Sequence record: PP919962.1
DNA from: Klebsiella phage KP2025
Length of the DNA: 64,000 nucleotides
Strand: one strand, 5' to 3'
This document shows, in pieces, positions 37,476-46,759 of this stretch (the first letter of the stretch is position 1; the number at the start of each line of letters is the position of its first letter). The notes below the pieces were generated by a model that was not told the origin of the DNA, ran no database searches, and saw nothing but the letters and a program-made list of their open reading frames with translations. Both the position numbers and the translations under genes were made by a program.

Positions 37476-38060
37476 CCTGATATTATCTGATATTTTAAAA
37501 ATTTTATTTTTAGAATAAAGGGGGCGGGGGTTCAGATTTCCAGAGCCTCCAGCTTTCTAATCTAAATTACTACGTATTCTTAATAAATGATAACCGAATG
37601 TTCTCCCTACTTAAAACCAATTTGGAGCGAACATTTTTTGTTGCATAAACAGGTCATAAAACATAACCCTACCTTAGTTATAGAACAAATCAAAGGAAAA
37701 GTTTCTAAAATTATTTAAAGTTTCTACAGATTTCTTTGAACTTTTACCTAAAAACAAAATTTAAAATTTCCCTAAATTATTTAAACTTTTTCTGTATCTT
37801 ACTACAGAAAAAACGTAAACTAAAATTTAAAATTTCCAAAAAATTCCCCAATTATTAAAAGTTTTTCAACTTTTCGATCTGCATTTTTCCAAAAGCAAAA
37901 TTTAGAATTCTCTAAAAATTTCCAGATGCATATGATAATCATTATTATTTGCAAATGAGAATCATTCCCATTTAAAAAGTTGAATGAGAATCATTCTCAT
38001 CTACAAACCGAAATGATTCTCATTCGCATCTGCGGAATGACAGGCAGGTTCGGTGTTTGT
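37476..38060. repeat. AT-rich non-coding island with direct repeats and palindromes (ori / regulator-site candidate)
   Basis: AAAATTTAAAATTTCC at 37757 and 37822, variant at 37897; Fur-box-like TGATAATCATTATTAT at 37933; ATGAGAAT-C-ATTCTCAT perfect palindrome at 37984-38000; related half-sites at 37955 and 38012. Confidence 0.6.
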
Positions 38061-38246: not shown

Positions 38247-38276
38247 ATTATAGCCCAGCTTGCGCCAGGCTGTCAA
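38247..38276 (-). promoter_or_regulatory. leftward sigma70-like promoter (TTGACA-18-TATAAT) reading into the non-coding island
   Basis: minus-strand TTGACAGCCTGGCGCAAGCTGGGCTATAAT. Confidence 0.45.
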
Positions 38277-38281
38277 CACGT

Positions 38282-38476
38282 TTAATGAGAATCCTGGGAC
38301 AATCTTTTCTCGATCTCTCGTTTAGCCCGCTCCAGGCCTATCTCACCTTTATAGCCGATGATAGCGCAACGTGTGGAATGTGTGATCCCTGTCTTATACA
38401 CGTCATAACCGTATCCAACAATCTTTACCCAATATTTACCGCAAGGTGATTCGTAAGCAATATCTGACTCTTTCAT
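38282..38476 (-). CDS. hypothetical protein (64 aa)
   Basis: GAGG RBS 9 nt before ATG; preferred over the overlapping plus-strand ORF. Confidence 0.4.
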   Translation of the reverse strand: MKESDIAYESPCGKYWVKIVGYGYDVYKTGITHSTRCAIIGYKGEIGLERAKREIEKRLSQDSH

Positions 38477-38581
38477 TTTATTAACCTCGTTATGCCTCCA
38501 CCGTGGCGGCTTGATAACTACTATATACTAATGAAGGTAAAACGCAAGCGAAAAGATTTAGAAAATATTTGCATCCAAGTA

Positions 38582-38610
38582 TTGACGCGAGGATCACACC
38601 GAGCTATTAT
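38582..38610 (+). promoter_or_regulatory. sigma70-like promoter TTGACG-17-TATTAT
   Basis: upstream of 38663 gene. Confidence 0.5.
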
Positions 38611-38662
38611 TTCCTACACAAGGCGAGGCGATAGGCGCTGCGCGCACTAGGAAGAAAAGAAA

Positions 38663-38891: not shown

Positions 38892-38950
38892 TTGACAGAT
38901 TCACACAGTAACGTATAATTCACTTCATAGGCAGCGGGAATGGTTCCCGC
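38892..38950 (+). promoter_or_regulatory. early cassette: TTGACA-16-TATAAT promoter plus leader hairpin GCGGGAA-TGG-TTCCCGC
   Basis: hairpin 38934-38950 ends 23 nt before ATG 38974. Confidence 0.55.
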
Positions 38951-38973: not shown

Positions 38974-39510
38974 ATGTCTGACATCATCGAAACTTTCAAA
39001 TTCTCCCGTAATAACATCGACTTTACTGTTAATGTAGTATGTGCACAATGTTATGATGGTTTTGGTGATCAATGGAAGATGACCGATACGCACGAGGGCG
39101 GCGTGACTATCAAAAATGCCGACGCCGGGCGGAATAGTTATAAATATGCCATTCCCCAGCAAACTACCCTGGCGGAGCTGGCAAGCTACTACGCTGCACA
39201 AGGGCGAGAAAACCCTAGCCGCGAAGCCTATGAAAGTTTACAGCGGCAATTATCACGAGATATTAACGCAAGTGATTATTATTTCACGGTTGACGCTAGC
39301 GCCGGATCTCATACCCTGTTAGATGGTGCGGTGATCGCTTGCGGGTTCGACTACTCATATGATGATGAGGGATCATTGTTAGACGCCGCCCAGGAAGTGT
39401 GGAAAGAGCACGATGGGGAAGCCGAAGCCCTGGAAGAGGCAACAAAAGCGGCGCGTGTTCTCTTGGAAGCTGTGGATGTGTTGAAAAGTATTGTTGAAAA
39501 CGCGCAATAA
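38974..39510 (+). CDS. hypothetical protein (178 aa, acidic C-terminus)
   Basis: ORF. Confidence 0.55.
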   Translation: MSDIIETFKFSRNNIDFTVNVVCAQCYDGFGDQWKMTDTHEGGVTIKNADAGRNSYKYAIPQQTTLAELASYYAAQGRENPSREAYESLQRQLSRDINASDYYFTVDASAGSHTLLDGAVIACGFDYSYDDEGSLLDAAQEVWKEHDGEAEALEEATKAARVLLEAVDVLKSIVENAQ

Positions 39511-39513
39511 TAC

Positions 39514-39542
39514 TTGACGCGCCCAAAGAAAGGGCGCATAAT
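39514..39542 (+). promoter_or_regulatory. promoter TTGACG-[GCGCCC aaagaaa GGGCGC]-CATAAT with palindromic spacer
   Basis: 17-nt spacer is an inverted repeat. Confidence 0.55.
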
Positions 39543-39572
39543 TCTCCTACACCAACAAAAGAGATTTGAAAA

Positions 39573-39863
39573 ATGAAAATTTCAGAGAACAAAGATTTAA
39601 TTTTCACCGTTAAAAATTATATCCGCCACCCGTATGAATTTGGCGGATATCCGAAAATTTTAATTATGCGTGATGGTAGTTGCCTTTGCTCAAAGTGTAC
39701 GCATGAAAATTTTCCCCGCCTATTGGAAGAATTAAGAGATGAGAGTGATCTAGCATGGATGCCCGCGGACGTGGATGTTTTCTGGGAAGGTGCGGATTTC
39801 CCGTGTGGTAATTGCGGGACTCCGATCCATAGTGCATATGGAGATCCCGAAGAAGAAGAATAA
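39573..39863 (+). CDS. hypothetical Cys-rich protein (96 aa)
   Basis: CLCSKC...CGNCG, acidic tail. Confidence 0.5.
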   Translation: MKISENKDLIFTVKNYIRHPYEFGGYPKILIMRDGSCLCSKCTHENFPRLLEELRDESDLAWMPADVDVFWEGADFPCGNCGTPIHSAYGDPEEEE

Positions 39864-39866
39864 ATA

Positions 39867-39924
39867 TTGACAAGCATCTAAAAGATAATAAACTGTTAAT
39901 CAAAGGGCGGGAATGGTTCCCGCC
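39867..39924 (+). promoter_or_regulatory. early cassette: TTGACA-16-TAAACT promoter plus hairpin GGCGGGAA-TGG-TTCCCGCC
   Basis: near-identical to cassette at 41452. Confidence 0.55.
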
Positions 39925-39944
39925 ACAATAAAGAGAGAAAAATT

Positions 39945-40091
39945 ATGAAACAACGTGTAATGAAAATCCACACCAACACCGGATCAACCGTTGTAACTCC
40001 CTCCCGTTTCGCTATCGCAAGCCGTTGCGCTCGTTTGAAACGTGAGTTAAAATCTAACCAGGGCGCGGGGTTTACCAGATGGGGGAAATAA
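39945..40091 (+). CDS. small basic protein (48 aa) missed by ORF track
   Basis: ATG 21 nt after hairpin; AGAGAGAAAAATT leader. Confidence 0.4.
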   Translation: MKQRVMKIHTNTGSTVVTPSRFAIASRCARLKRELKSNQGAGFTRWGK

Positions 40092-40098
40092 TAACGTA

Positions 40099-40359
40099 AT
40101 GAAGCCACTGTTTTTAAACTGTGAGGGCGAGGTGATCGCCTTCATGGATTCAACAGCCTACGATCTGGCACGGTATGCAATGACGTTTAAAGAGAACGTT
40201 TACAAACGGATTGGCGGCGGATACACTATCTTTAATCATCGTAATGCTGAGGTAAAGGACGTCACAAAGGTCGAGATAGGCAAATATCGGATCGGATGGA
40301 TGCCGTCAAGAGACGCGGCGAGCCTTTACCGTGTTTGCGAGTTAGTAACAAGGGGTTAG
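40099..40359 (+). CDS. hypothetical protein (86 aa)
   Basis: ORF. Confidence 0.5.
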   Translation: MKPLFLNCEGEVIAFMDSTAYDLARYAMTFKENVYKRIGGGYTIFNHRNAEVKDVTKVEIGKYRIGWMPSRDAASLYRVCELVTRG

Positions 40360-40362
40360 CCT

Positions 40363-40911
40363 ATGGGGCGCGAGCATGTTGTACAATCTTGGGTAAAACA
40401 TGATGAGGATGATTGGCGGGTAATACCGCCCCACCTCCTAGAAACTGCCAGCGGATACAGTGGCGAGCAAGTGGGGCAACGTGTAGCCCGTAACAACGGG
40501 AACACGGCGATTCGCGCCACGATTCCTGGTTGGCTGCCAAATGGCCGCGCCGACATTGCAGGGGCGGCAGATCCAGCGGATGAAGCAAAAGGTGATCCGC
40601 TACTGCTAGTAGATCCAGCGTTTAAGACGCTGTTAGAATACCCTAGCAAGGTGGCGGCACTGGAAGCGGCGTATCGGGCGGGTAAATTGCCGGATAGCTT
40701 ATATCGTAGCGCCTTGCGCGTCTTAGACGTGAAAGCAGATAAGGCACAGCGTAAAATTGATAAGCTGATTGGATCTGTCCTCCTGGAGGAAGAGAACGCG
40801 CCGGAGGAAGAGCCGGAGCTTGACCCGGTAGTCCTGGAAGAGGACGCGATCACGCCGTATCATCCTACGCCGGAAGAGGCAGCGCAAGCCCTGCGAAATT
40901 ATTTCAAATAA
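40363..40911 (+). CDS. hypothetical protein (182 aa, acidic Pro/Glu-rich C-terminus)
   Basis: ORF. Confidence 0.5.
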   Translation: MGREHVVQSWVKHDEDDWRVIPPHLLETASGYSGEQVGQRVARNNGNTAIRATIPGWLPNGRADIAGAADPADEAKGDPLLLVDPAFKTLLEYPSKVAALEAAYRAGKLPDSLYRSALRVLDVKADKAQRKIDKLIGSVLLEEENAPEEEPELDPVVLEEDAITPYHPTPEEAAQALRNYFK

Positions 40912-40915
40912 GGGA

Positions 40916-40976
40916 TTGACAAGCGCCCAAGAGGGGCGCATAATTCATCACATAGGGCGGCAATGATGCCGACACC
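40916..40976 (+). promoter_or_regulatory. early cassette: TTGACA-[GCGCCC aagag GGGCGC]-CATAAT plus GGCGGCA-like leader hairpin
   Basis: palindromic spacer; hairpin 40956-40976. Confidence 0.55.
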
Positions 40977-40990
40977 AAAGAGGATAGATT

Positions 40991-41107
40991 ATGTTAATCA
41001 AGAAAGAAAACTGCTTTTTCACTGGTATTATTAATGCGCTGATCCTTTCGGTTCCATTGTGGGTAGTTATCGGTTTTACTTTGTGGTTAGTATCAAAAGC
41101 AGCGTAA
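40991..41107 (+). CDS. small membrane peptide (38 aa) missed by ORF track
   Basis: hydrophobic helix. Confidence 0.35.
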   Translation: MLIKKENCFFTGIINALILSVPLWVVIGFTLWLVSKAA

Positions 41108-41114
41108 AAACTAG

Positions 41115-41175
41115 TTGACAGGCAGATCCAAAGGGTCTAATATTCATATCAAGGCGGGGAGATAGGCGAACCGCC
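41115..41175 (+). promoter_or_regulatory. early cassette: TTGACA-17-TAATAT plus leader hairpin GGCGG...CCGCC
   Basis: upstream of 41197. Confidence 0.5.
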
Positions 41176-41196
41176 AAAGCTGAAAAGGTTAGCATT

Positions 41197-41424
41197 ATGG
41201 CAAAGTCAAAAGGTTTTAACGGTCACAAAAACTGGAATCATTGGAACGTTTCATTATGGATCAATAATGACGAGGGATTATACCGCCTTGCAATGAATTG
41301 CATTTCATCCACTGACAACCGCGACGAAGCCGCCGCCAAAATGTTGCGCAGCGTGAGCAAGAAAACGCCGGACGGCGCACCGTACAGCAAAACCACGATC
41401 CGCGCTGCGATGGTTGGAATGTAG
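41197..41424 (+). CDS. hypothetical protein (75 aa)
   Basis: ORF. Confidence 0.5.
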   Translation: MAKSKGFNGHKNWNHWNVSLWINNDEGLYRLAMNCISSTDNRDEAAAKMLRSVSKKTPDGAPYSKTTIRAAMVGM

Positions 41425-41451
41425 AAAAATCGTCAATCTTATAAAATAAGG

Positions 41452-41507
41452 TTGACAACCTTCTAAAATAAAGTAAACTGTTAATCAAGGCGGGAATAGT
41501 TCCCGCC
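41452..41507 (+). promoter_or_regulatory. early cassette: TTGACA-16-TAAACT plus hairpin GGCGGGAA-TAG-TTCCCGCC
   Basis: paralog of 39867 cassette. Confidence 0.55.
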
Positions 41508-41526
41508 ACAACAAAGAGAGAAAATT

Positions 41527-41688
41527 ATGATTGCCATGAATACTCGCGAAGCCGCTCGCAACGTAGCCCGTAAAGTTAACGCCGTTGCACCTGCTAAATT
41601 GAAAGCACCAGTGAAAGGCGAAAACGGCTGGATCTTCCCTGGCTTGTCTCATGCTGACGGAAAAGGCACCTTGAGCCTGAAAAAATAA
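41527..41688 (+). CDS. small basic protein (53 aa) missed by ORF track
   Basis: ATG 20 nt after hairpin. Confidence 0.4.
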   Translation: MIAMNTREAARNVARKVNAVAPAKLKAPVKGENGWIFPGLSHADGKGTLSLKK

Positions 41689-41689
41689 G

Positions 41690-41726
41690 TTGACTTTTCG
41701 TTATGCCGTGCTATCCTGTACGGCAT
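41690..41726 (+). promoter_or_regulatory. promoter TAAGTTGACTTTTCG...TATCCT with -10 inside palindrome ATGCCGT-N10-ACGGCAT
   Basis: first of three paralogous promoters (41690, 42034, 42290). Confidence 0.5.
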
Positions 41727-41782
41727 AGAGAAAAAGAAACATCCGGCAATAATGCCAAAATCATCAATAAAGGAGATAAACA

Positions 41783-42027
41783 TGACTACTACTAACCTGC
41801 TGAAAACCCCGCGTATCGGTGATTCTGTATTCATTGGTTTTGCCACTAATGGGGACGGCAAAATGGTTAAAGGTGGCGCTGAAATTCCGTTCGATAAGGT
41901 GGCGGCAATCTACGCCGAAACTTCCACCACTAAGGACGGCAAAATCATGCATCATGTACGCACAGCAAGCGGCGACGCCGTTGCAGTGATCGGTTGTTCA
42001 AAAAACTACTGGCACGCTGTTAAATAA
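41783..42027 (+). CDS. hypothetical protein (81 aa)
   Basis: AAGGAG RBS. Confidence 0.5.
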
Positions 42028-42033
42028 ATATCG

Positions 42034-42070
42034 TTGACTTTTCGTTATAGCGTCCTATAATGGGCGCTAT
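42034..42070 (+). promoter_or_regulatory. promoter TTGACT-16-TATAAT with -10 inside palindrome TATAGCG...CGCTATA
   Basis: paralog of 41690. Confidence 0.5.
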
Positions 42071-42108
42071 AGAGAAGAGAAACTAGCCCAACAAAAGAGA
42101 GTAAGAAA

Positions 42109-42282
42109 ATGGAAATTATCGCAGAACTTAGAATAAAAGGTATCGATCCGGTCATTATGACTTATGAGGATCTGCAATATACCGTAACATATGGTGAACA
42201 ATCTGAAACTTACGATTATTACGATGAAGCGGAGCAGGCTTTTAACGCGTTTGCCGAGATTGCCCTAGATGAATATCGTTAA
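42109..42282 (+). CDS. small acidic protein (57 aa) missed by ORF track
   Basis: ORF. Confidence 0.4.
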   Translation: MEIIAELRIKGIDPVIMTYEDLQYTVTYGEQSETYDYYDEAEQAFNAFAEIALDEYR

Positions 42283-42289
42283 AAATAAG

Positions 42290-42326
42290 TTGACTTTCTG
42301 TGATGCCCCTTTATAATAAGGGGCAT
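42290..42326 (+). promoter_or_regulatory. promoter TTGACT-16-TATAAT with -10 in loop of ATGCCCCTT-TATAAT-AAGGGGCAT
   Basis: perfect 9-bp arms flank the -10 hexamer. Confidence 0.55.
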
Positions 42327-42362
42327 TGAAGAGAGAAGACCAACAATCTAACGAGGTGTAAA

Positions 42363-42584
42363 ATGGTTACATTTGCAATTATTTCCCTGGTGGCTGGCAA
42401 CGTGTTTATCAATGATACTTTCGCGGCGGATGATAGCAAGCCAGGAGAAATCAGCACAGCTTATGCAGATTGTAAAGCCGCTGAACGTATGTTATCGCCT
42501 TGCCTGCTGATGAGTGAACGCGAGGACGGGAAAATCGTATTCACCAACGTTGAAACCTGGTATCAATTGGTAGTTGCAAAATAA
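42363..42584 (+). CDS. secreted or membrane small protein (73 aa)
   Basis: N-terminal hydrophobic segment. Confidence 0.5.
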   Translation: MVTFAIISLVAGNVFINDTFAADDSKPGEISTAYADCKAAERMLSPCLLMSEREDGKIVFTNVETWYQLVVAK

Positions 42585-42632
42585 ATTTCATCTGATAGAA
42601 TACTGACATCACTTAAGTAAAAGGGAAATAAT

Positions 42633-42860
42633 ATGAAACGCAAAATCACTATTTCTTATGAGTGGACGCAAGCAGATGGTAGTGAAGTACTGGATCACCA
42701 CAAAGAGTACTTGGAAGAGTCAGCCGATGAGCGTATCCGGGAACAGATTGGAGCAGGTTGTATTAAGGGGCAATTGCTCGACAACATCCACACGCAGGAA
42801 GATCCCGACGACCACGAAGGGACAGAGTATAAAGGTTGGTGGACTTTAATTATCGAGTAA
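42633..42860 (+). CDS. hypothetical protein (75 aa)
   Basis: ORF. Confidence 0.5.
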   Translation: MKRKITISYEWTQADGSEVLDHHKEYLEESADERIREQIGAGCIKGQLLDNIHTQEDPDDHEGTEYKGWWTLIIE

Positions 42861-42947
42861 AATTAGTGGCAAAATAAATTTAGTACTTTATAATACTTAC
42901 CTACAGACAGATAGTCTGTTCTTATTTGACTACAACAGAGTAATGAA

Positions 42948-43100
42948 ATGAATCCTAATCATAAAATGATGATGGAAGCAAGCCGTTTTATCAATAAAAC
43001 AGAAAAAAGAAAATGTTTTGTTTTATGTCTCATAACGCTTGCAATTGGTTTAGCTTGTGTTATTATTACTTACGCTGATTTATCAAATACCACTAAATAA
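42948..43100 (+). CDS. small membrane peptide (50 aa) missed by ORF track
   Basis: ORF. Confidence 0.35.
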   Translation: MNPNHKMMMEASRFINKTEKRKCFVLCLITLAIGLACVIITYADLSNTTK

Positions 43101-43111
43101 GAGATAAGATT

Positions 43112-43468
43112 ATGAATAACATCCTGATCGAGAAACGCGCCGAACTGCTGGAAGTTAAACAGGCTATCTATGCAAAACAGAGGGAGATCCGCAACTTCTC
43201 TTATGAGTCAACTGATGATGAGTATGATTCTTATTTGGATGGATGCTATGGCGATCTTGACGTTTGCGGCAGCACTTTCAGCGCGTCCTATGCTCTTAAA
43301 AACCTTGACCCTACGGCGTACCGTTGCGGCAAGTCAGATTATGACAGCGAAAAAGATCTTGACGATGTGCCGGAGTATGTTACACTCACGGAAGAGCTGG
43401 AAGAGCTGGAAGAGCTGGAAAGCGATCTTGAAAGTGAGATTGAAGAGCTGGAAGAGAGCGAAGAATAA
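43112..43468 (+). CDS. highly acidic protein with LEELEE repeats (118 aa)
   Basis: C-terminus TEELEELEELESDLESEIEELEESEE. Confidence 0.55.
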   Translation: MNNILIEKRAELLEVKQAIYAKQREIRNFSYESTDDEYDSYLDGCYGDLDVCGSTFSASYALKNLDPTAYRCGKSDYDSEKDLDDVPEYVTLTEELEELEELESDLESEIEELEESEE

Positions 43469-43481
43469 TTTTAAAAACAGG

Positions 43482-43537
43482 TTGACACGGTAGACGGTTT
43501 AAAGTAGATTAGTATTCAAGGGGGAGCGGTTCCCCCC
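43482..43537 (+). promoter_or_regulatory. early cassette: TTGACA-17-TAGATT plus hairpin GGGGGA-GCGGT-TCCCCC
   Basis: upstream of 43561. Confidence 0.5.
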
Positions 43538-43560
43538 ACTAACAACAAAGGCGATACATC

Positions 43561-43932
43561 ATGAAATCAGCAGAGAAAATTAAATCTTACATCCTGGCGG
43601 CGATTGATTTTGAAGGTGAGAACGGCAAAACGTTTACCACCGAGGGAGAGAAGATCACCGAACTGATGCGCCGCTTTAAATGTGAATATTGGTATCCAGC
43701 AAATCAGCAGCGCTACGGCACCATGACAAAAGCAATGGCCTCGTGGTTGCAGGGATTGCCGAGTGAAATCGGCATTGCATTCTATTATGATGAGATTGAT
43801 TCTCTTTTGATTGAGTGGGGTTATCTGAAACATACTAGCCGCGAAGCAACAATTGACCGCGAGCGGGATCAATACTGGCTTTATCTGGCAGGTTCACTAA
43901 TGAGCCTTGCGAAGCGGTATAATCTAGCTTGA
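43561..43932 (+). CDS. hypothetical protein (123 aa)
   Basis: ORF. Confidence 0.5.
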   Translation: MKSAEKIKSYILAAIDFEGENGKTFTTEGEKITELMRRFKCEYWYPANQQRYGTMTKAMASWLQGLPSEIGIAFYYDEIDSLLIEWGYLKHTSREATIDRERDQYWLYLAGSLMSLAKRYNLA

Positions 43933-43961
43933 GATTGAATCTGGCATAAGATACACAATAA

Positions 43962-43979
43962 GAGCGGCAGCAATGCCGC
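43962..43979 (+). promoter_or_regulatory. leader hairpin AGCGGCA-GCAA-TGCCGCT (GNRA tetraloop family)
   Basis: upstream of small gene 44009. Confidence 0.5.
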
Positions 43980-44008
43980 TAACATTAAAATAAAACGAGG
44001 GTTTAAAA

Positions 44009-44143
44009 ATGAATGGTAGCCACCACGTCGAAAAAATGGCAAGCGATAAACAGCGAAAAGCATGGGACGATGAAACCGGGCGCAAAGGAGACAAGCGCAA
44101 CAAAACAAAACGAGATCGAAGTCAAAAACGGAATTGGGAATAA
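44009..44143 (+). CDS. small very basic protein (44 aa) missed by ORF track
   Basis: ORF. Confidence 0.35.
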   Translation: MNGSHHVEKMASDKQRKAWDDETGRKGDKRNKTKRDRSQKRNWE

Positions 44144-44145
44144 TA

Positions 44146-44178
44146 AGGAGGGGCGCTGAATGCGCCTCTTTCCGTTTA
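44146..44178 (+). terminator. rho-independent terminator AGGGGCGC-TGAAT-GCGCCTCT + TTCCGTTT
   Basis: GC stem plus T-rich tail. Confidence 0.5.
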
Positions 44179-44260
44179 TACAGCGTTTTCTATAGTGAGC
44201 CATACAAACACCAGGGAGCACCATAAAAACCGCTTAGAACGCATTACAGGAGCTTAGACA

Positions 44261-44443
44261 ATGACATTAGAACAGATTCAAAAGGCACTAGCCCAGGGCG
44301 GCAGACTTTCAGCACGTTACCGTGATCAATGGGGCTTTATCATTAGCGGCGTGATCCTGGCTATTGAGGGCGGCGACCTGCTGATCGATACCCTGAAAAA
44401 CCGAGTGAAGCCGGAGATGGTGATATCTATCAAGTACCTTTGA
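44261..44443 (+). CDS. hypothetical protein (60 aa)
   Basis: leader contains conserved CCGCTTAGAACGCATTACAGGAGCTTAGACA block. Confidence 0.45.
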   Translation: MTLEQIQKALAQGGRLSARYRDQWGFIISGVILAIEGGDLLIDTLKNRVKPEMVISIKYL

Positions 44444-44534
44444 TTGATAGGTTTAAACGATTAGACACTGCATCGATAATGGCACATAGTGAATACATAA
44501 AGCGGGGCAAAGGCCAGCTAGGGGAGGAAACGAA

Positions 44535-44918
44535 ATGAAAAAATTTATCATCGCCGCTATGCTGGCAGCAGTAAGCGCCAGCGCAGCAGCAGACACCGAG
44601 ATCAACGTGATGAGCGCAAGCCGTGATTTACGCGCCAGCATTGAAAAAATGTTAATTGTATCAGGCGATAATAACGCAACGTTACGATCTTACACCTTAT
44701 CAAAAACCTTTGAGGACGCGCTTGATTCTCAAATGATACCTATTCTCAATAATAACCCTGATGCATCATGCGAGCTTATCGCAGCGCGGATCGCGGAAAA
44801 CGGGCGGCAGAACTACGCGCCTTATCAGGTTAACCCACTTATGACAAGGGCTATCGATAATATGATCGGTAAAATGGTTGTTTATACTATGGCGCGGTGT
44901 TATTACTTAAAGGGTTGA
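44535..44918 (+). CDS. secreted protein (127 aa, signal peptide)
   Basis: MKKFIIAAMLAAVSASAAA. Confidence 0.55.
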   Translation: MKKFIIAAMLAAVSASAAADTEINVMSASRDLRASIEKMLIVSGDNNATLRSYTLSKTFEDALDSQMIPILNNNPDASCELIAARIAENGRQNYAPYQVNPLMTRAIDNMIGKMVVYTMARCYYLKG

Positions 44919-44943
44919 CAGGAAGCACTTGATCGATTATCTT
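44915..44943 (+). promoter_or_regulatory. promoter TTGACA-17-TATCTT
   Basis: upstream of 44974. Confidence 0.4.
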
Positions 44944-44973
44944 TAAGCCAGGCAAACAAAAGGGTAAAGAAAA

Positions 44974-45249
44974 ATGATTCAGGCTAACACTTTAATGATG
45001 TTTCAGGAAGTGCAAAACGCCGCTGTAATGGTTGAGCAATTCCAGGACGGCGACACCATGATCGCCACGTTGAAAGAGAACGCCGAAAGCATCCTAATCA
45101 TTAGCTTGAAAACAGTTTCAAAAGGTTACTACTCCCTTGCTTATCATTTCATTACTAATGATGATGAAACAAGCCAGGATTTTTCCTTGCCTTTCCCGGC
45201 AAATTATGCGCCTTCTTTTGTAGCGGCAATTGTTAATGATGTTTTCTAA
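44974..45249 (+). CDS. hypothetical protein (91 aa)
   Basis: ORF. Confidence 0.5.
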   Translation: MIQANTLMMFQEVQNAAVMVEQFQDGDTMIATLKENAESILIISLKTVSKGYYSLAYHFITNDDETSQDFSLPFPANYAPSFVAAIVNDVF

Positions 45250-45532
45250 TGGGTAACGAATAAAGAAAGTCAATAGCTTTTCCAGTTATTTTTCATTTTT
45301 GCGTTATGCAAAAAAGTGAATTTAAAGACTTCTCACGCAAGATGATTAAGGGTATGGCAAACGGTTAGAGCCTCTTAGAATGCGTTTTAGAGCGTTTTAG
45401 AGGGTATTGACTTTTCCCGAAATACTCAAAGCGTCTTAAATTTAGTTTCATCGTGTGATTATTTGCATACGGGTGCATTTCTATGCAATTTAGTGAATAA
45501 TGTAAAAATGCAGAATATTACATTCCTCCCTA

Positions 45533-45598
45533 TTGACTACCGCGCCCAATTTGTTATGATTTATCACATAGGGCGGGGCAATAATGCAGCGCCACAAA
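45533..45598 (+). promoter_or_regulatory. early cassette: TTGACT-16-TATGAT (half-palindromic spacer ACCGCGCCC) plus GGCGGGGCA...GCGCC leader hairpin
   Basis: upstream of ATG 45616. Confidence 0.5.
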
Positions 45599-45615
45599 AT
45601 CCGAAGGATTGCATC

Positions 45616-46074
45616 ATGAATAAATTCTGTGTAGGTCAAAAAGTTATTGATTGTTTCAATGATCGTAAACTGTTAACGATTGTTAAAACTTTTGAATCTG
45701 GTCAAATCGAGCTTGAAAACGGCGTGATCACCTATACGGATCGGGTTCAACGCCAAGAGCATTACCTTGACCATACAAATTACCTGTACCATCATTCTCG
45801 TTTTGGTGATGCTGTATGCATGATCAATGAAGCGTTTCAAGAGTACATTTCAGCACTTGCCGAAATGGGAGATTTATGCTCTTATCCTGGGGAATCTGTT
45901 TTCATAATGAAAGCGCGTACCATGTGCCAAACGTGGATCGACGAAGCCGCCGCGAGGATTGAGCATGGTTTAGCCTGGAAGCGTACAGCAGAACATAATT
46001 TATCACAGTGGTATCGTGTACCGCTTGATCATCACTTCCCATTCCTTAACCCTGAAAATGTGACAGACTACTAA
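45616..46074 (+). CDS. hypothetical protein (152 aa); ORF-track start at 45463 rejected
   Basis: AAGGA RBS 8 nt before ATG 45616; upstream extension would span the promoter. Confidence 0.5.
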   Translation: MNKFCVGQKVIDCFNDRKLLTIVKTFESGQIELENGVITYTDRVQRQEHYLDHTNYLYHHSRFGDAVCMINEAFQEYISALAEMGDLCSYPGESVFIMKARTMCQTWIDEAAARIEHGLAWKRTAEHNLSQWYRVPLDHHFPFLNPENVTDY

Positions 46075-46083
46075 AAAATAGTG

Positions 46084-46143
46084 TTGACAGCGCCCAATAA
46101 AGGGCGCATAATTCATTACATAAGGCGGGGAGTGGTTCCCCGC
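46084..46143 (+). promoter_or_regulatory. early cassette: TTGACA-[GCGCCC aataaa GGGCGC]-CATAAT plus hairpin GCGGGGA-N5-TCCCCGC
   Basis: palindromic spacer promoter class. Confidence 0.55.
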
Positions 46144-46161
46144 TAAATGAGAGATTTAATT

Positions 46162-46386
46162 ATGTTCGATTTAGACAGACTGGCAACAGCGATTGAAAAA
46201 GCAGGTGATGCAAAGTATGGCATCCAAGATCATTACTTTATCGGTCAATATCCTGATGGTACTTACTACGGTGTATTGTCTAATAAAGTGAAAAGCCGTA
46301 GCAGCGCCGCGCAACTGCGAAGCCCGGAATTTTTCGAACAAAAAGGCATTAAAGCGATCAAGGTTATGAAGCGTAAAGCTAAATAA
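46162..46386 (+). CDS. hypothetical basic protein (74 aa; alternative start 46147)
   Basis: ATG 19 nt after hairpin as in sister cassettes. Confidence 0.45.
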   Translation: MFDLDRLATAIEKAGDAKYGIQDHYFIGQYPDGTYYGVLSNKVKSRSSAAQLRSPEFFEQKGIKAIKVMKRKAK

Positions 46387-46388
46387 AT

Positions 46389-46418
46389 TTGACAACGCGC
46401 CCGGTAAGGGCGCATAAT
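46389..46418 (+). promoter_or_regulatory. promoter TTGACA-[ACGCGCCC ggtaa GGGCGC]-ATAAT with palindromic spacer
   Basis: upstream of 46448. Confidence 0.5.
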
Positions 46419-46447
46419 GCTACCAAGTCAATAGCGAGAGCGACAAT

Positions 46448-46684
46448 ATGAAAACGAAAAGCATTCTCATTAACAAAAAATTTCCCAATCGTGTATGGGA
46501 GATCAGCGAAGTGATCAACGCGGGGACGATTGAACAATATAACCGTTTGATCGGGTATATCCGGGAAACTGAATGCGGTTATGTGTGGACTCATTCTGGA
46601 CTAAACCGCGAAAGCGCAAGCTATTTCCCAACAAAACCCCTTGCGCTGGTAGGTTTAAAGCTGGTGCATCAAGATTATAAATAA
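46448..46684 (+). CDS. hypothetical protein (78 aa)
   Basis: ORF. Confidence 0.5.
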   Translation: MKTKSILINKKFPNRVWEISEVINAGTIEQYNRLIGYIRETECGYVWTHSGLNRESASYFPTKPLALVGLKLVHQDYK

Positions 46685-46691
46685 TTTATTT

Positions 46692-46725
46692 CGCCCCGGG
46701 GCTTGATCTCCCTGGGGCGTTTTGC
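46692..46725 (+). terminator. rho-independent terminator CGCCCCGG...CCTGGGGCG + TTTTGCTAT
   Basis: GC stem plus T run. Confidence 0.55.
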
Positions 46726-46740
46726 TATCCTTATTTTGTG

Positions 46741-46759
46741 GGCGGGAATGGTTCCCGAC
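46741..46759 (+). promoter_or_regulatory. leader hairpin GGCGGGAA-TGG-TTCCCGAC
   Basis: 19 nt before ATG 46778. Confidence 0.5.

Follow-up and report, generated by a model that had tools for sequence, protein, structure and literature searches.

Promoter-early stem-loops (PeSLs) were defined in the variable regions of the T4-like phages RB49 and phi1 as strong sigma70-like promoters in which a stem-loop lies mostly between the -35 and -10 hexamers or over the -10 itself (Arbiol et al. 2010, PMC2839356). They are preceded by AT-rich DNA and followed by a Shine-Dalgarno sequence and a start codon, show a preference for small orphan genes, and are found at the endpoints of insertions, deletions and replacements, with the capacity to yield mini-circles (PMC2839356). 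In the same work, PeSL206/205 was a very strong promoter, at about 13,000 Miller units, and the stem-loop of PeSL211/210 cut the expression of a downstream lacZ as much as rrnB T1 did (PMC2839356). The consensus of the stem is lineage-specific in other T4-like pairs, PST/T4 and nt-1/KVP40 (Comeau et al. 2014, PMC4122927). Here, we describe four promoters of Klebsiella phage KP2025 whose spacer between -35 and -10 is itself a GC-rich inverted repeat, GCGCCC-N-GGGCGC, and compare them with this system. The window analysed is the whole stretch of 64,000 nucleotides of record PP919962.1. For phAPEC8-, rV5- and FBKp34-like phages, the searchable literature yielded neither transcript maps nor descriptions of spacer palindromes.

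The window comes from a Stephanstirmvirinae phage of Klebsiella, and its closest record, KP13-26, is 93.7% identical over 97% of the 39-47 kb region, followed by FKP3, phi1_175008 and FBKp34. The interval 38.5-48 kb is a rightward tandem array of small genes, mosaic between relatives, with about 17 sigma70-type promoters in 9.5 kb. A search of the window for GCGCCC-N(3-12)-GGGCGC gave exactly four matches, all on the plus strand, at 39519-39537, 40923-40939, 46090-46107 and 46397-46413 (sites 1 to 4 hereafter), and none of 100 dinucleotide-preserving shuffles of the window contained one. Each copy sits in a near-consensus sigma70-type promoter, TTGAC(A/G)-N17/18-CATAAT, matching the consensus at 10-11 of 12 positions and ranking among the best promoter-like sites of the region; the activity of these promoters is predicted. 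The depositors of FBKp34 annotated promoters at the corresponding positions, site 1 included. The proposal of a sequence-only reading of this DNA, that four promoters share one design, was thus borne out, and the coordinates that it gave (39514, 40916, 46084 and 46389) are correct as the starts of the -35 hexamers. The motif search that it had suggested extends to relatives: the complete KP13-26 genome also has four copies, all between 4.6 and 12 kb of the record, the remaining ~132 kb having none, and the FKP3 record has one exact copy.

The four sites have a common anatomy. The site 1 promoter (39514-39542, plus strand) consists of TTGACG (39514-39519), a 17-nt spacer and CATAAT (39537-39542), with the hairpin GCGCCC-aaagaaa-GGGCGC at 39519-39537; it begins 3 nt past the stop codon of the open reading frame (ORF) 38974-39510 and would drive ORF 39573-39863. 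The site 2 promoter (40916-40944, plus strand), TTGACA-N17-CATAAT with the hairpin GCGCCC-aagag-GGGCGC at 40923-40939, follows ORF 40363-40911 and would drive the small ORF 40991-41107, in whose leader a second hairpin lies at 40956-40973. The site 3 promoter (46084-46112, plus strand), also TTGACA-N17-CATAAT, with GCGCCC-aataaa-GGGCGC at 46090-46107, follows ORF 45616-46074 and would drive ORF 46147-46386, with a leader hairpin at 46125-46143. The site 4 promoter (46389-46418, plus strand) has an 18-nt spacer in which two bases (ac) separate TTGACA from the hairpin GCGCCC-ggtaa-GGGCGC (46397-46413) ahead of CATAAT; it follows ORF 46147-46386 and would drive ORF 46448-46684. The loops at sites 1 to 4 are thus 7, 5, 6 and 5 nt long.

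At all four sites the 3' arm and the -10 overlap by one base, the final C of the arm, so that the -10 reads CATAAT; at 39514 the initial G of the 5' arm likewise doubles as the sixth base of the -35. Since the hexamers share bases with the arms, the hairpin is squeezed into, and slightly over, the 17-18 bp spacer. The -35 lies 2-9 nt past the preceding stop codon, and the hairpins begin 8, 11, 15 and 10 nt past the TAA of the preceding same-strand gene at sites 1, 2, 3 and 4, respectively. The 20 nt upstream of the promoters are 65-80% A+T, compared to 59% for the window, and a Shine-Dalgarno sequence (AAAGAG/GAGAG) lies 6-9 nt ahead of an ATG, 30-60 nt past the -10. Upon RNA folding, the spacer hairpin was the minimum-energy or centroid structure in its context, at about -13 kcal/mol (-12.8 kcal/mol for site 1); as single-stranded DNA, the hairpins folded with -7.8 to -8.6 kcal/mol. 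The genes adjoining the four sites gave no Pfam domain and only PHROG families of unknown function, with no match to a DNA-binding domain in either search.

We re-scanned the RB49 region with ORFs 185-211 in the same way. PeSL211/210 reads TTGACA-GGGGAT-cacgt-ATCCCC-TATACT and PeSL206/205 reads TTGACA-GGGGAT-cggtg-ATCCCC-TATAAT; one PeSL borrows the last base of the -35, and one has a G.T pair. The layout 6+5+6 = 17 of the spacer is thus found in RB49 and here. Likewise, both systems include subclasses with the stem over or downstream of the -10, both place their cassettes immediately behind stop codons, in tandem rows of small genes whose function is unknown, and both have a lineage-specific consensus of the arms. 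In both, AT-rich DNA precedes the cassette, the Shine-Dalgarno sequence and start codon of the next gene close it on the 3' side, and the cassettes lie at the boundaries of insertions, deletions or replacements between close relatives (here at sites 1 and 4). They differ in the host lineage, the phage here being a member of the Stephanstirmvirinae (with the design also present in Vequintavirinae) and not of the T4-like Straboviridae; in the arms, which are GCGCCC/GGGCGC and not G(n)/C(n), the 3' arm forcing CATAAT; and in the additional conserved leader hairpin that many of the cassettes here carry. Terminator and mini-circle activity are features of RB49/phi1, while the cassettes here are known from sequence alone. 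In every sequence-level feature tested the four sites match, and we assign them to the PeSL type, as PeSL-like cassettes in a new lineage.

We then asked what is conserved in the spacer, its sequence or its pairing. At site 4, the loops of five orthologues are GGTAA, GAAGA, GATAA, GAAAA and AATAA: four of the five loop columns vary and none of the 12 arm columns does, in agreement with the earlier suggestion that the arms are under selection and the loops are free. The distance from arm to arm differs by up to 2 bp among the copies of one genome (5-7 nt). The arms themselves are exchanged in other lineages. In phi1_175008, the orthologous site 1 has AGCCCC-gaaa-GGGGCT and site 3 has GCGCCC-cataaa-GGGCGC. 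A cassette search in which the -35, the -10 and the start region were fixed and the spacer was left open found TTGAC-GGGGCC-gacgata-GGCCCC-ATAATTCACCACATAG in a contig identical to Cronobacter phage CR3 (Vequintavirinae). Between GGGGCC/GGCCCC of CR3 and GCGCCC/GGGCGC there are two compensatory flips from C-G to G-C, with the same -35, -10 and start region. The CR3 array also contains GCCGGGA/TCCCGGC, CGGCCC/GGGCCG and GCCGGG/CCCGGC, i.e. at least four arm types in one array, and at least 12 different arm pairs occupy the same spacer position in relatives and in Vequintavirinae phages. Among orthologues, TGGGGC is paired with either GTCCCA or GCCCCA, a wobble-compatible substitution, and several stems have G.T pairs on the sense strand.

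Over the window, its relatives and related contigs, 34 of 99 promoter-like sites have a perfect GC-rich spacer stem of at least 5 bp. When the spacers were shuffled with their composition preserved, such a stem appeared at 11.8 sites on average and at no more than 20, so that the observed number corresponds to an enrichment of about 3-fold. The case for pairing rests on this enrichment and on the orthologous replacements, as a count of covariation on a set chosen for pairing is circular. Searches of IMG/VR for orthologues with two flanking proteins gave 2 and 6 loci, which serve as examples and are too few for statistics. Because the arms vary by lineage, the loops and spacing vary and G.T pairs are tolerated, selection appears to act on the pairing of the arms and not on a fixed sequence recognised by a protein.

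A comparable hairpin is found after the stop codon in Mydovirus-like contigs, with or without a -35. In IMG/VR contigs L053-L056, CGGGGCG-N5-CGCCCCG followed by CTATCCTTTGAGG lies after the stop codon and upstream of homologues of ORF 46147-46386; in L054 a TTGACA is placed such that this hairpin is the spacer, and L053, L055 and L056 have no -35. In these contigs the hairpin thus appears as the fixed component, to which a promoter may or may not be added. Other IMG/VR contigs (L003, L005 and others) that matched the arms followed by ATAAT have the palindrome without a -35, and these were treated as unrelated hairpins.

The sequence-only reading had held that the spacer is not transcribed, making the palindrome a feature of the DNA. 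This does not fit the arrangement of the genes, since the hairpins lie 8-15 nt past same-strand stop codons with no terminator between. The gene preceding each site has its own promoter a few hundred bases upstream, with no canonical terminator between, and therefore the RNA that reads through should contain the spacer hairpin. The terminator scan found no canonical plus-strand terminator between 38.6 and 42.9 kb; the only canonical intrinsic terminator in this part of the array, at 46692-46719 on the plus strand, has a 10-bp GC stem followed by TTTT. The first rightward promoter of the array, 38582, has no same-strand gene upstream and no spacer hairpin, which fits the idea of an action on read-through RNA, as a single case. 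It is faced by a minus-strand promoter at 38276, the two forming a divergent control region at 38247-38620.

Taken together, these data lead us to propose that each site is a composite of a promoter and an intercistronic hairpin, the latter acting on read-through RNA as an attenuator or 3' protector, and that the composite marks the boundaries at which genes are shuffled; we give this reading a probability of roughly 0.6. Each cassette would be a strong early promoter for host sigma70 whose spacer is filled by a 6-bp all-G/C stem with a loop of 5-7 nt. The hairpin would occupy the spacer because every other part of a strong promoter is constrained in sequence, and the arms would be all G/C because stability has to be obtained from 6 bp. 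As the transcript of the cassette's own promoter starts downstream of the hairpin, the hairpin would be without effect there and would act in read-through RNA from the promoters of upstream genes. It would fold as RNA polymerase reaches the A/U-rich -10 segment (AUAAUUC), and would then attenuate or terminate read-through, leave a 3' hairpin that shields the upstream message from exonucleases, or both. As an outcome, the expression of each small early gene would depend largely on its own promoter. For the attenuator or 3'-protector step itself our confidence is moderate. Promoter, hairpin, leader and ribosome-binding site would move as one unit of ~70 bp, providing a portable patch of homology for gene swaps.

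Two further classes of elements resemble such a hairpin in part. Like intrinsic terminators, the cassettes have a GC-rich hairpin a few nucleotides past a stop codon, followed by an A/U-rich stretch, here the -10 hexamer; they differ by the stem of 6 bp and the absence of a U-tract (AUAAUUCU), and they fail the terminator scan that the element at 46692-46719 passes. In the early mRNA of phage T7, intercistronic RNase III sites are processed to leave protective 3' stems. The hairpins here similarly lie between co-directional early genes, with a likely role in message stability, but stems of 6 bp are too short for RNase III and each gene has its own promoter; only the long stems at 42034 and 42290, described below, come near a suitable length.

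The predicted exchange of genes at the cassettes is supported by the comparison with relatives. When homology blocks were drawn between the window and five relatives, they repeatedly began or ended inside promoter cassettes: 29 of 76 block ends fell in cassette windows that cover 17% of the region, the ends not being independent of each other. At site 4, homology with KP13-26 and FBKp34 stops at 46418-46419, right after GGGCGCATAAT, and differing genes follow; KP13-26 has an extra gene of ~500 bp downstream of this site. Homology with FBKp34 and phi1_175008 stops near the ribosome-binding site at site 1. The entire site-4 cassette is missing from phi1_175008, where the flanking genes overlap at ATGA (window 46330-46480 compared with L023 10604-10690), which suggests translational coupling. 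By this comparison, the site-4 cassette behaves as an insertion/deletion unit, its downstream gene existing also without it. No homology junctions were found at sites 2 and 3 in the relatives examined.

Several observations weigh against the proposed composite. None of the four hairpins is followed by a T-run, the tail being ATAATTCT with 4 U in the first 8 nt, and the terminator scan, which called 46692-46719, called none of them. In the absence of a U-tract, efficient intrinsic termination is doubtful, and the attenuator or 3'-protector step is inferred. The searchable literature gave no transcript-end or expression data for this phage group. Site 2 of phi1_175008 and site 3 of contig L051 have lost the hairpin, and in one relative an A.C mismatch weakens the spacer, GCACCC/GGGCGC; this is taken to be site 3 of FKP3, because FKP3 matches there at 96% yet has one exact copy of the motif. 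The comparison of G.T with A.C pairs involves few informative stems, and its A.C class is inflated by the conserved AC...AT flanks of the hexamers. Moreover, the four identical arm pairs in one genome could reflect a sequence-specific reader. Finally, selection for intact genes alone would also put block ends in intergenic cassettes, and we regard their placement as supportive rather than decisive.

A bolder version of the proposed composite, in which the two signals work as one, is in our judgement rather unlikely. Here the -10 hexamer would double as the A/U tract of a weak terminator, and the polymerase would be paused or released on the next promoter, so that termination is coupled to re-initiation in a hand-off and the genes are insulated; selection would have arrived at such a design more than once, in T4-like, phAPEC8-like and rV5-like phages, with any G/C arms that pair. 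Bacterial coupled promoter-terminator elements (bioRxiv 10.64898/2026.08.19.745784) are similar as an idea, in that adjacent initiation and termination signals are physically coupled.

The explanation that comes next is a DNA recombination element: the palindrome, as single-stranded DNA or simply as a short identical sequence, would be a target for crossover or for a nuclease and would have little role in transcription. The mosaic junctions and the clean insertion or deletion of cassettes at these sites agree with it, as do HNH endonuclease genes in or beside the array in relatives and the stability of the single-stranded DNA hairpin (-7.8 to -8.6 kcal/mol, above), and crossovers inside PeSLs and excised mini-circles have been demonstrated for RB49/phi1 (PMC2839356). 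However, among the relatives examined junctions occur at only two of the four sites and are scattered between the -35 and the start codon rather than placed at the palindrome itself, and such an element gives no account of why pairing is kept while the sequence of the arms changes. We consider it improbable as the main function. Arms of 6 bp with loops of 5-7 nt are too short for cruciform extrusion from duplex DNA, and extrusion was rejected on these general grounds.

Palindromic operators that overlap promoters are well known from repressors of the lambda/P22 or LacI type. A double-stranded DNA operator, on which a dimeric phage or host regulator binds GCGCCC-N-GGGCGC and switches off a subset of promoters together, was one of the two possibilities raised by the sequence-only reading, the other being a structure-prone element. 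As in the lambda/P22 or LacI type, a perfect inverted repeat lies within the footprint of RNA polymerase; the arms are shared by all four sites and do not change in close relatives, unlike the loops; the motif is confined to four promoters per genome; and symmetric changes of the arms between lineages are also expected from a repressor co-evolving with its operator. The spacing of the half-sites, nevertheless, varies by 2 bp within one genome (loops of 5, 6 and 7 nt), the site 1 arms of phi1_175008 differ from its standard site 3 arms, CR3 combines at least four arm types in one array, and stems with G.T pairs are tolerated. The position is also free, with similar hairpins lying elsewhere in sister promoters and occurring in other contigs even without a -35. 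The all-G/C composition of the arms, for its part, is explained by the need for stability in a 6-bp stem, and the RB49 cassettes of the same geometry are constitutive strong promoters and terminators in uninfected E. coli (PMC2839356). The structure-prone part of the earlier proposal thus stands, and the operator with co-regulated switch-off, given the variable spacing and the differing arms, is disfavoured; we hold it to be quite improbable. The presence of GCGC and RGCGCY in the arms had also raised a restriction or methylation site, which was dropped as only some copies fit.

Another explanation, also quite improbable, is that the hairpin is a functionless passenger of a promoter cassette duplicated four times, with arms alike through recent descent or gene conversion. 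The cassettes indeed also share the -35, CATAAT and, at three sites, the start region TTCAYYACATAG; sites 1 and 3 are identical over 29 bp in KP13-26 and FBKp34; and the hairpin has been lost at some sites. On the other hand, the loop has diverged in sequence and length with both arms intact, which contiguous gene conversion would not give, RB49 and other lineages have the hairpin structure in this position with unrelated arms, and spacer hairpins are enriched about 3-fold over shuffled spacers. An RNA site for a phage protein, bound in the read-through RNA for boxB-like antitermination or stabilisation, is highly improbable: the short GC stem has a purine-rich pentaloop, and the loops GAAGA and GAAAA of site-4 orthologues equal those of lambda boxB, but neither the sequence nor the length of the loop is conserved (AAAGAAA, AAGAG, AATAAA, GGTAA), no boxA-like partner was noticed, there is no Rfam match and many arm types coexist.

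The sequence-only reading had counted a promoter at 45533 as a half copy of the class. This promoter (45533-45560, plus strand; TTGACT-N16-TATGAT) reads TTGACT-ACC-GCGCCC-aatttgt-TATGAT, with GCGCCC on the left only, and in orthologues GCGCCC is replaced by AGGCCC (FBKp34, phi1_175008), CGACCC (KP13-26) or CGTCCC (FKP3). As GCGCCC is without conservation there, we rejected both a decayed and a functional member of the class; by this comparison the site is an ordinary promoter that resembles the motif by chance.

When all TTGAC sites of the array were read, nearly all of its promoters proved to have a GC-rich hairpin, whose place differs: some hairpins lie in the spacer, some surround the -10 and others are in the 5' leader. 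A weaker spacer hairpin, AGATCC-aaa-GGGTCT (41124-41138), with a T.G pair and a centroid structure of -5.6 kcal/mol, is present in the plus-strand promoter 41115-41143. On the minus strand, the promoter 38247-38276 (a perfect TTGACA-N18-TATAAT) contains the hairpin AGCCTGGC-gcaa-GCTGGGCT at 38252-38271, with two G.T pairs on its own sense strand, and stands directly after the minus-strand ORF 38282-38476; its FBKp34 orthologue has identical arms and the loop aaaa.

Three plus-strand promoters of a TTGACT class have the -10 hexamer looped in a long inverted repeat. In 42034-42070, TATAAT is the loop of ATAGCGTCC/GGGCGCTAT (42047-42070), the extended stem folding with -26.3 kcal/mol (z = -6.4), and the inner arms GCGTCC/GGGCGC resemble those of the four sites. 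In 42290-42326, TATAAT is likewise the loop of ATGCCCCTT/AAGGGGCAT (42303-42326), with -26.8 kcal/mol (z = -7.1). The folding energies of both include an outer CTTTTC/GAGAAG pairing, and both stems are near the length suited to RNase III. In 41690-41726, ATGCCGT-gctatcctgt-ACGGCAT (41703-41726) encloses the -10-like TATCCT. The own transcripts of these -10-centred promoters would start inside the 3' arm, and therefore the full hairpin would be present only in read-through RNA.

Leader hairpins accompany the promoters 38892, 39867, 41452 and 43482, in addition to 40916 and 46084. A recurrent form is found at 38934-38950, 39907-39923, 41489-41507, 43520-43537, 46125-46143 and 46740-46759, as a GC stem of 7-8 bp with the loop RYGGU (e.g. 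GGCGGGGAGTGGTTCCCCGC) that begins about 6-20 nt past the predicted transcription start and precedes the ribosome-binding site. The identical leader 20-mer was seen behind sigma70-type promoters of two further phages, phAPEC8 (Phapecoctavirus) and the jumbo phage phAPEC6 (Asteriusvirus; 352 kb); KaOmega (Vequintavirinae) has a variant with one base changed, and a group of unrelated IMG/VR contigs contains the exact 19-mer in another context. Rfam gave no match for this hairpin, which may be a 5'-terminal stabiliser of the mRNA or a part of a cassette common to several families. Leaders free of a hairpin (39543-39572, those of other cassettes and L001 8562-8590) have ACACCAAC(A)AAAGAG, from about +1 to the ribosome-binding site; this sequence lies downstream of differing promoters and upstream of differing genes in differing phages, and the RB49 PeSL leaders carry a comparable ACACMCATACCGAAACGA.

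Two annotations near the sites deserve comment. The product of ORF 39573-39863 is a Cys-rich protein of 96 amino acids that matches phrog_18452, labelled 'DNA ligase', as are several GenBank homologues. Since a Pfam ligase domain is lacking and the protein is much too small for a ligase, the label is probably a propagated misannotation. A permissive Rfam scan of 37-50 kb gave nothing relevant; a sub-threshold match to mir-304 at 37951-38027 on the minus strand (30.5 bits compared with a gathering score of 99, E = 0.004) most likely reflects one more hairpin of the divergent region.

No new regulatory principle is revealed by these cassettes. They extend promoter/stem-loop cassettes, known in T4-like phages, to Stephanstirmvirinae and Vequintavirinae, and they would represent compact natural parts that combine a promoter with an insulator. 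In therapeutic phages of Klebsiella and E. coli, these units of ~70 bp mark the points at which accessory genes are swapped. Their recurrence suggests a general solution for densely packed early accessory genes, in which a hairpin is placed in the one stretch of a strong promoter that is free of sequence requirements, and a general substrate for gene shuffling.

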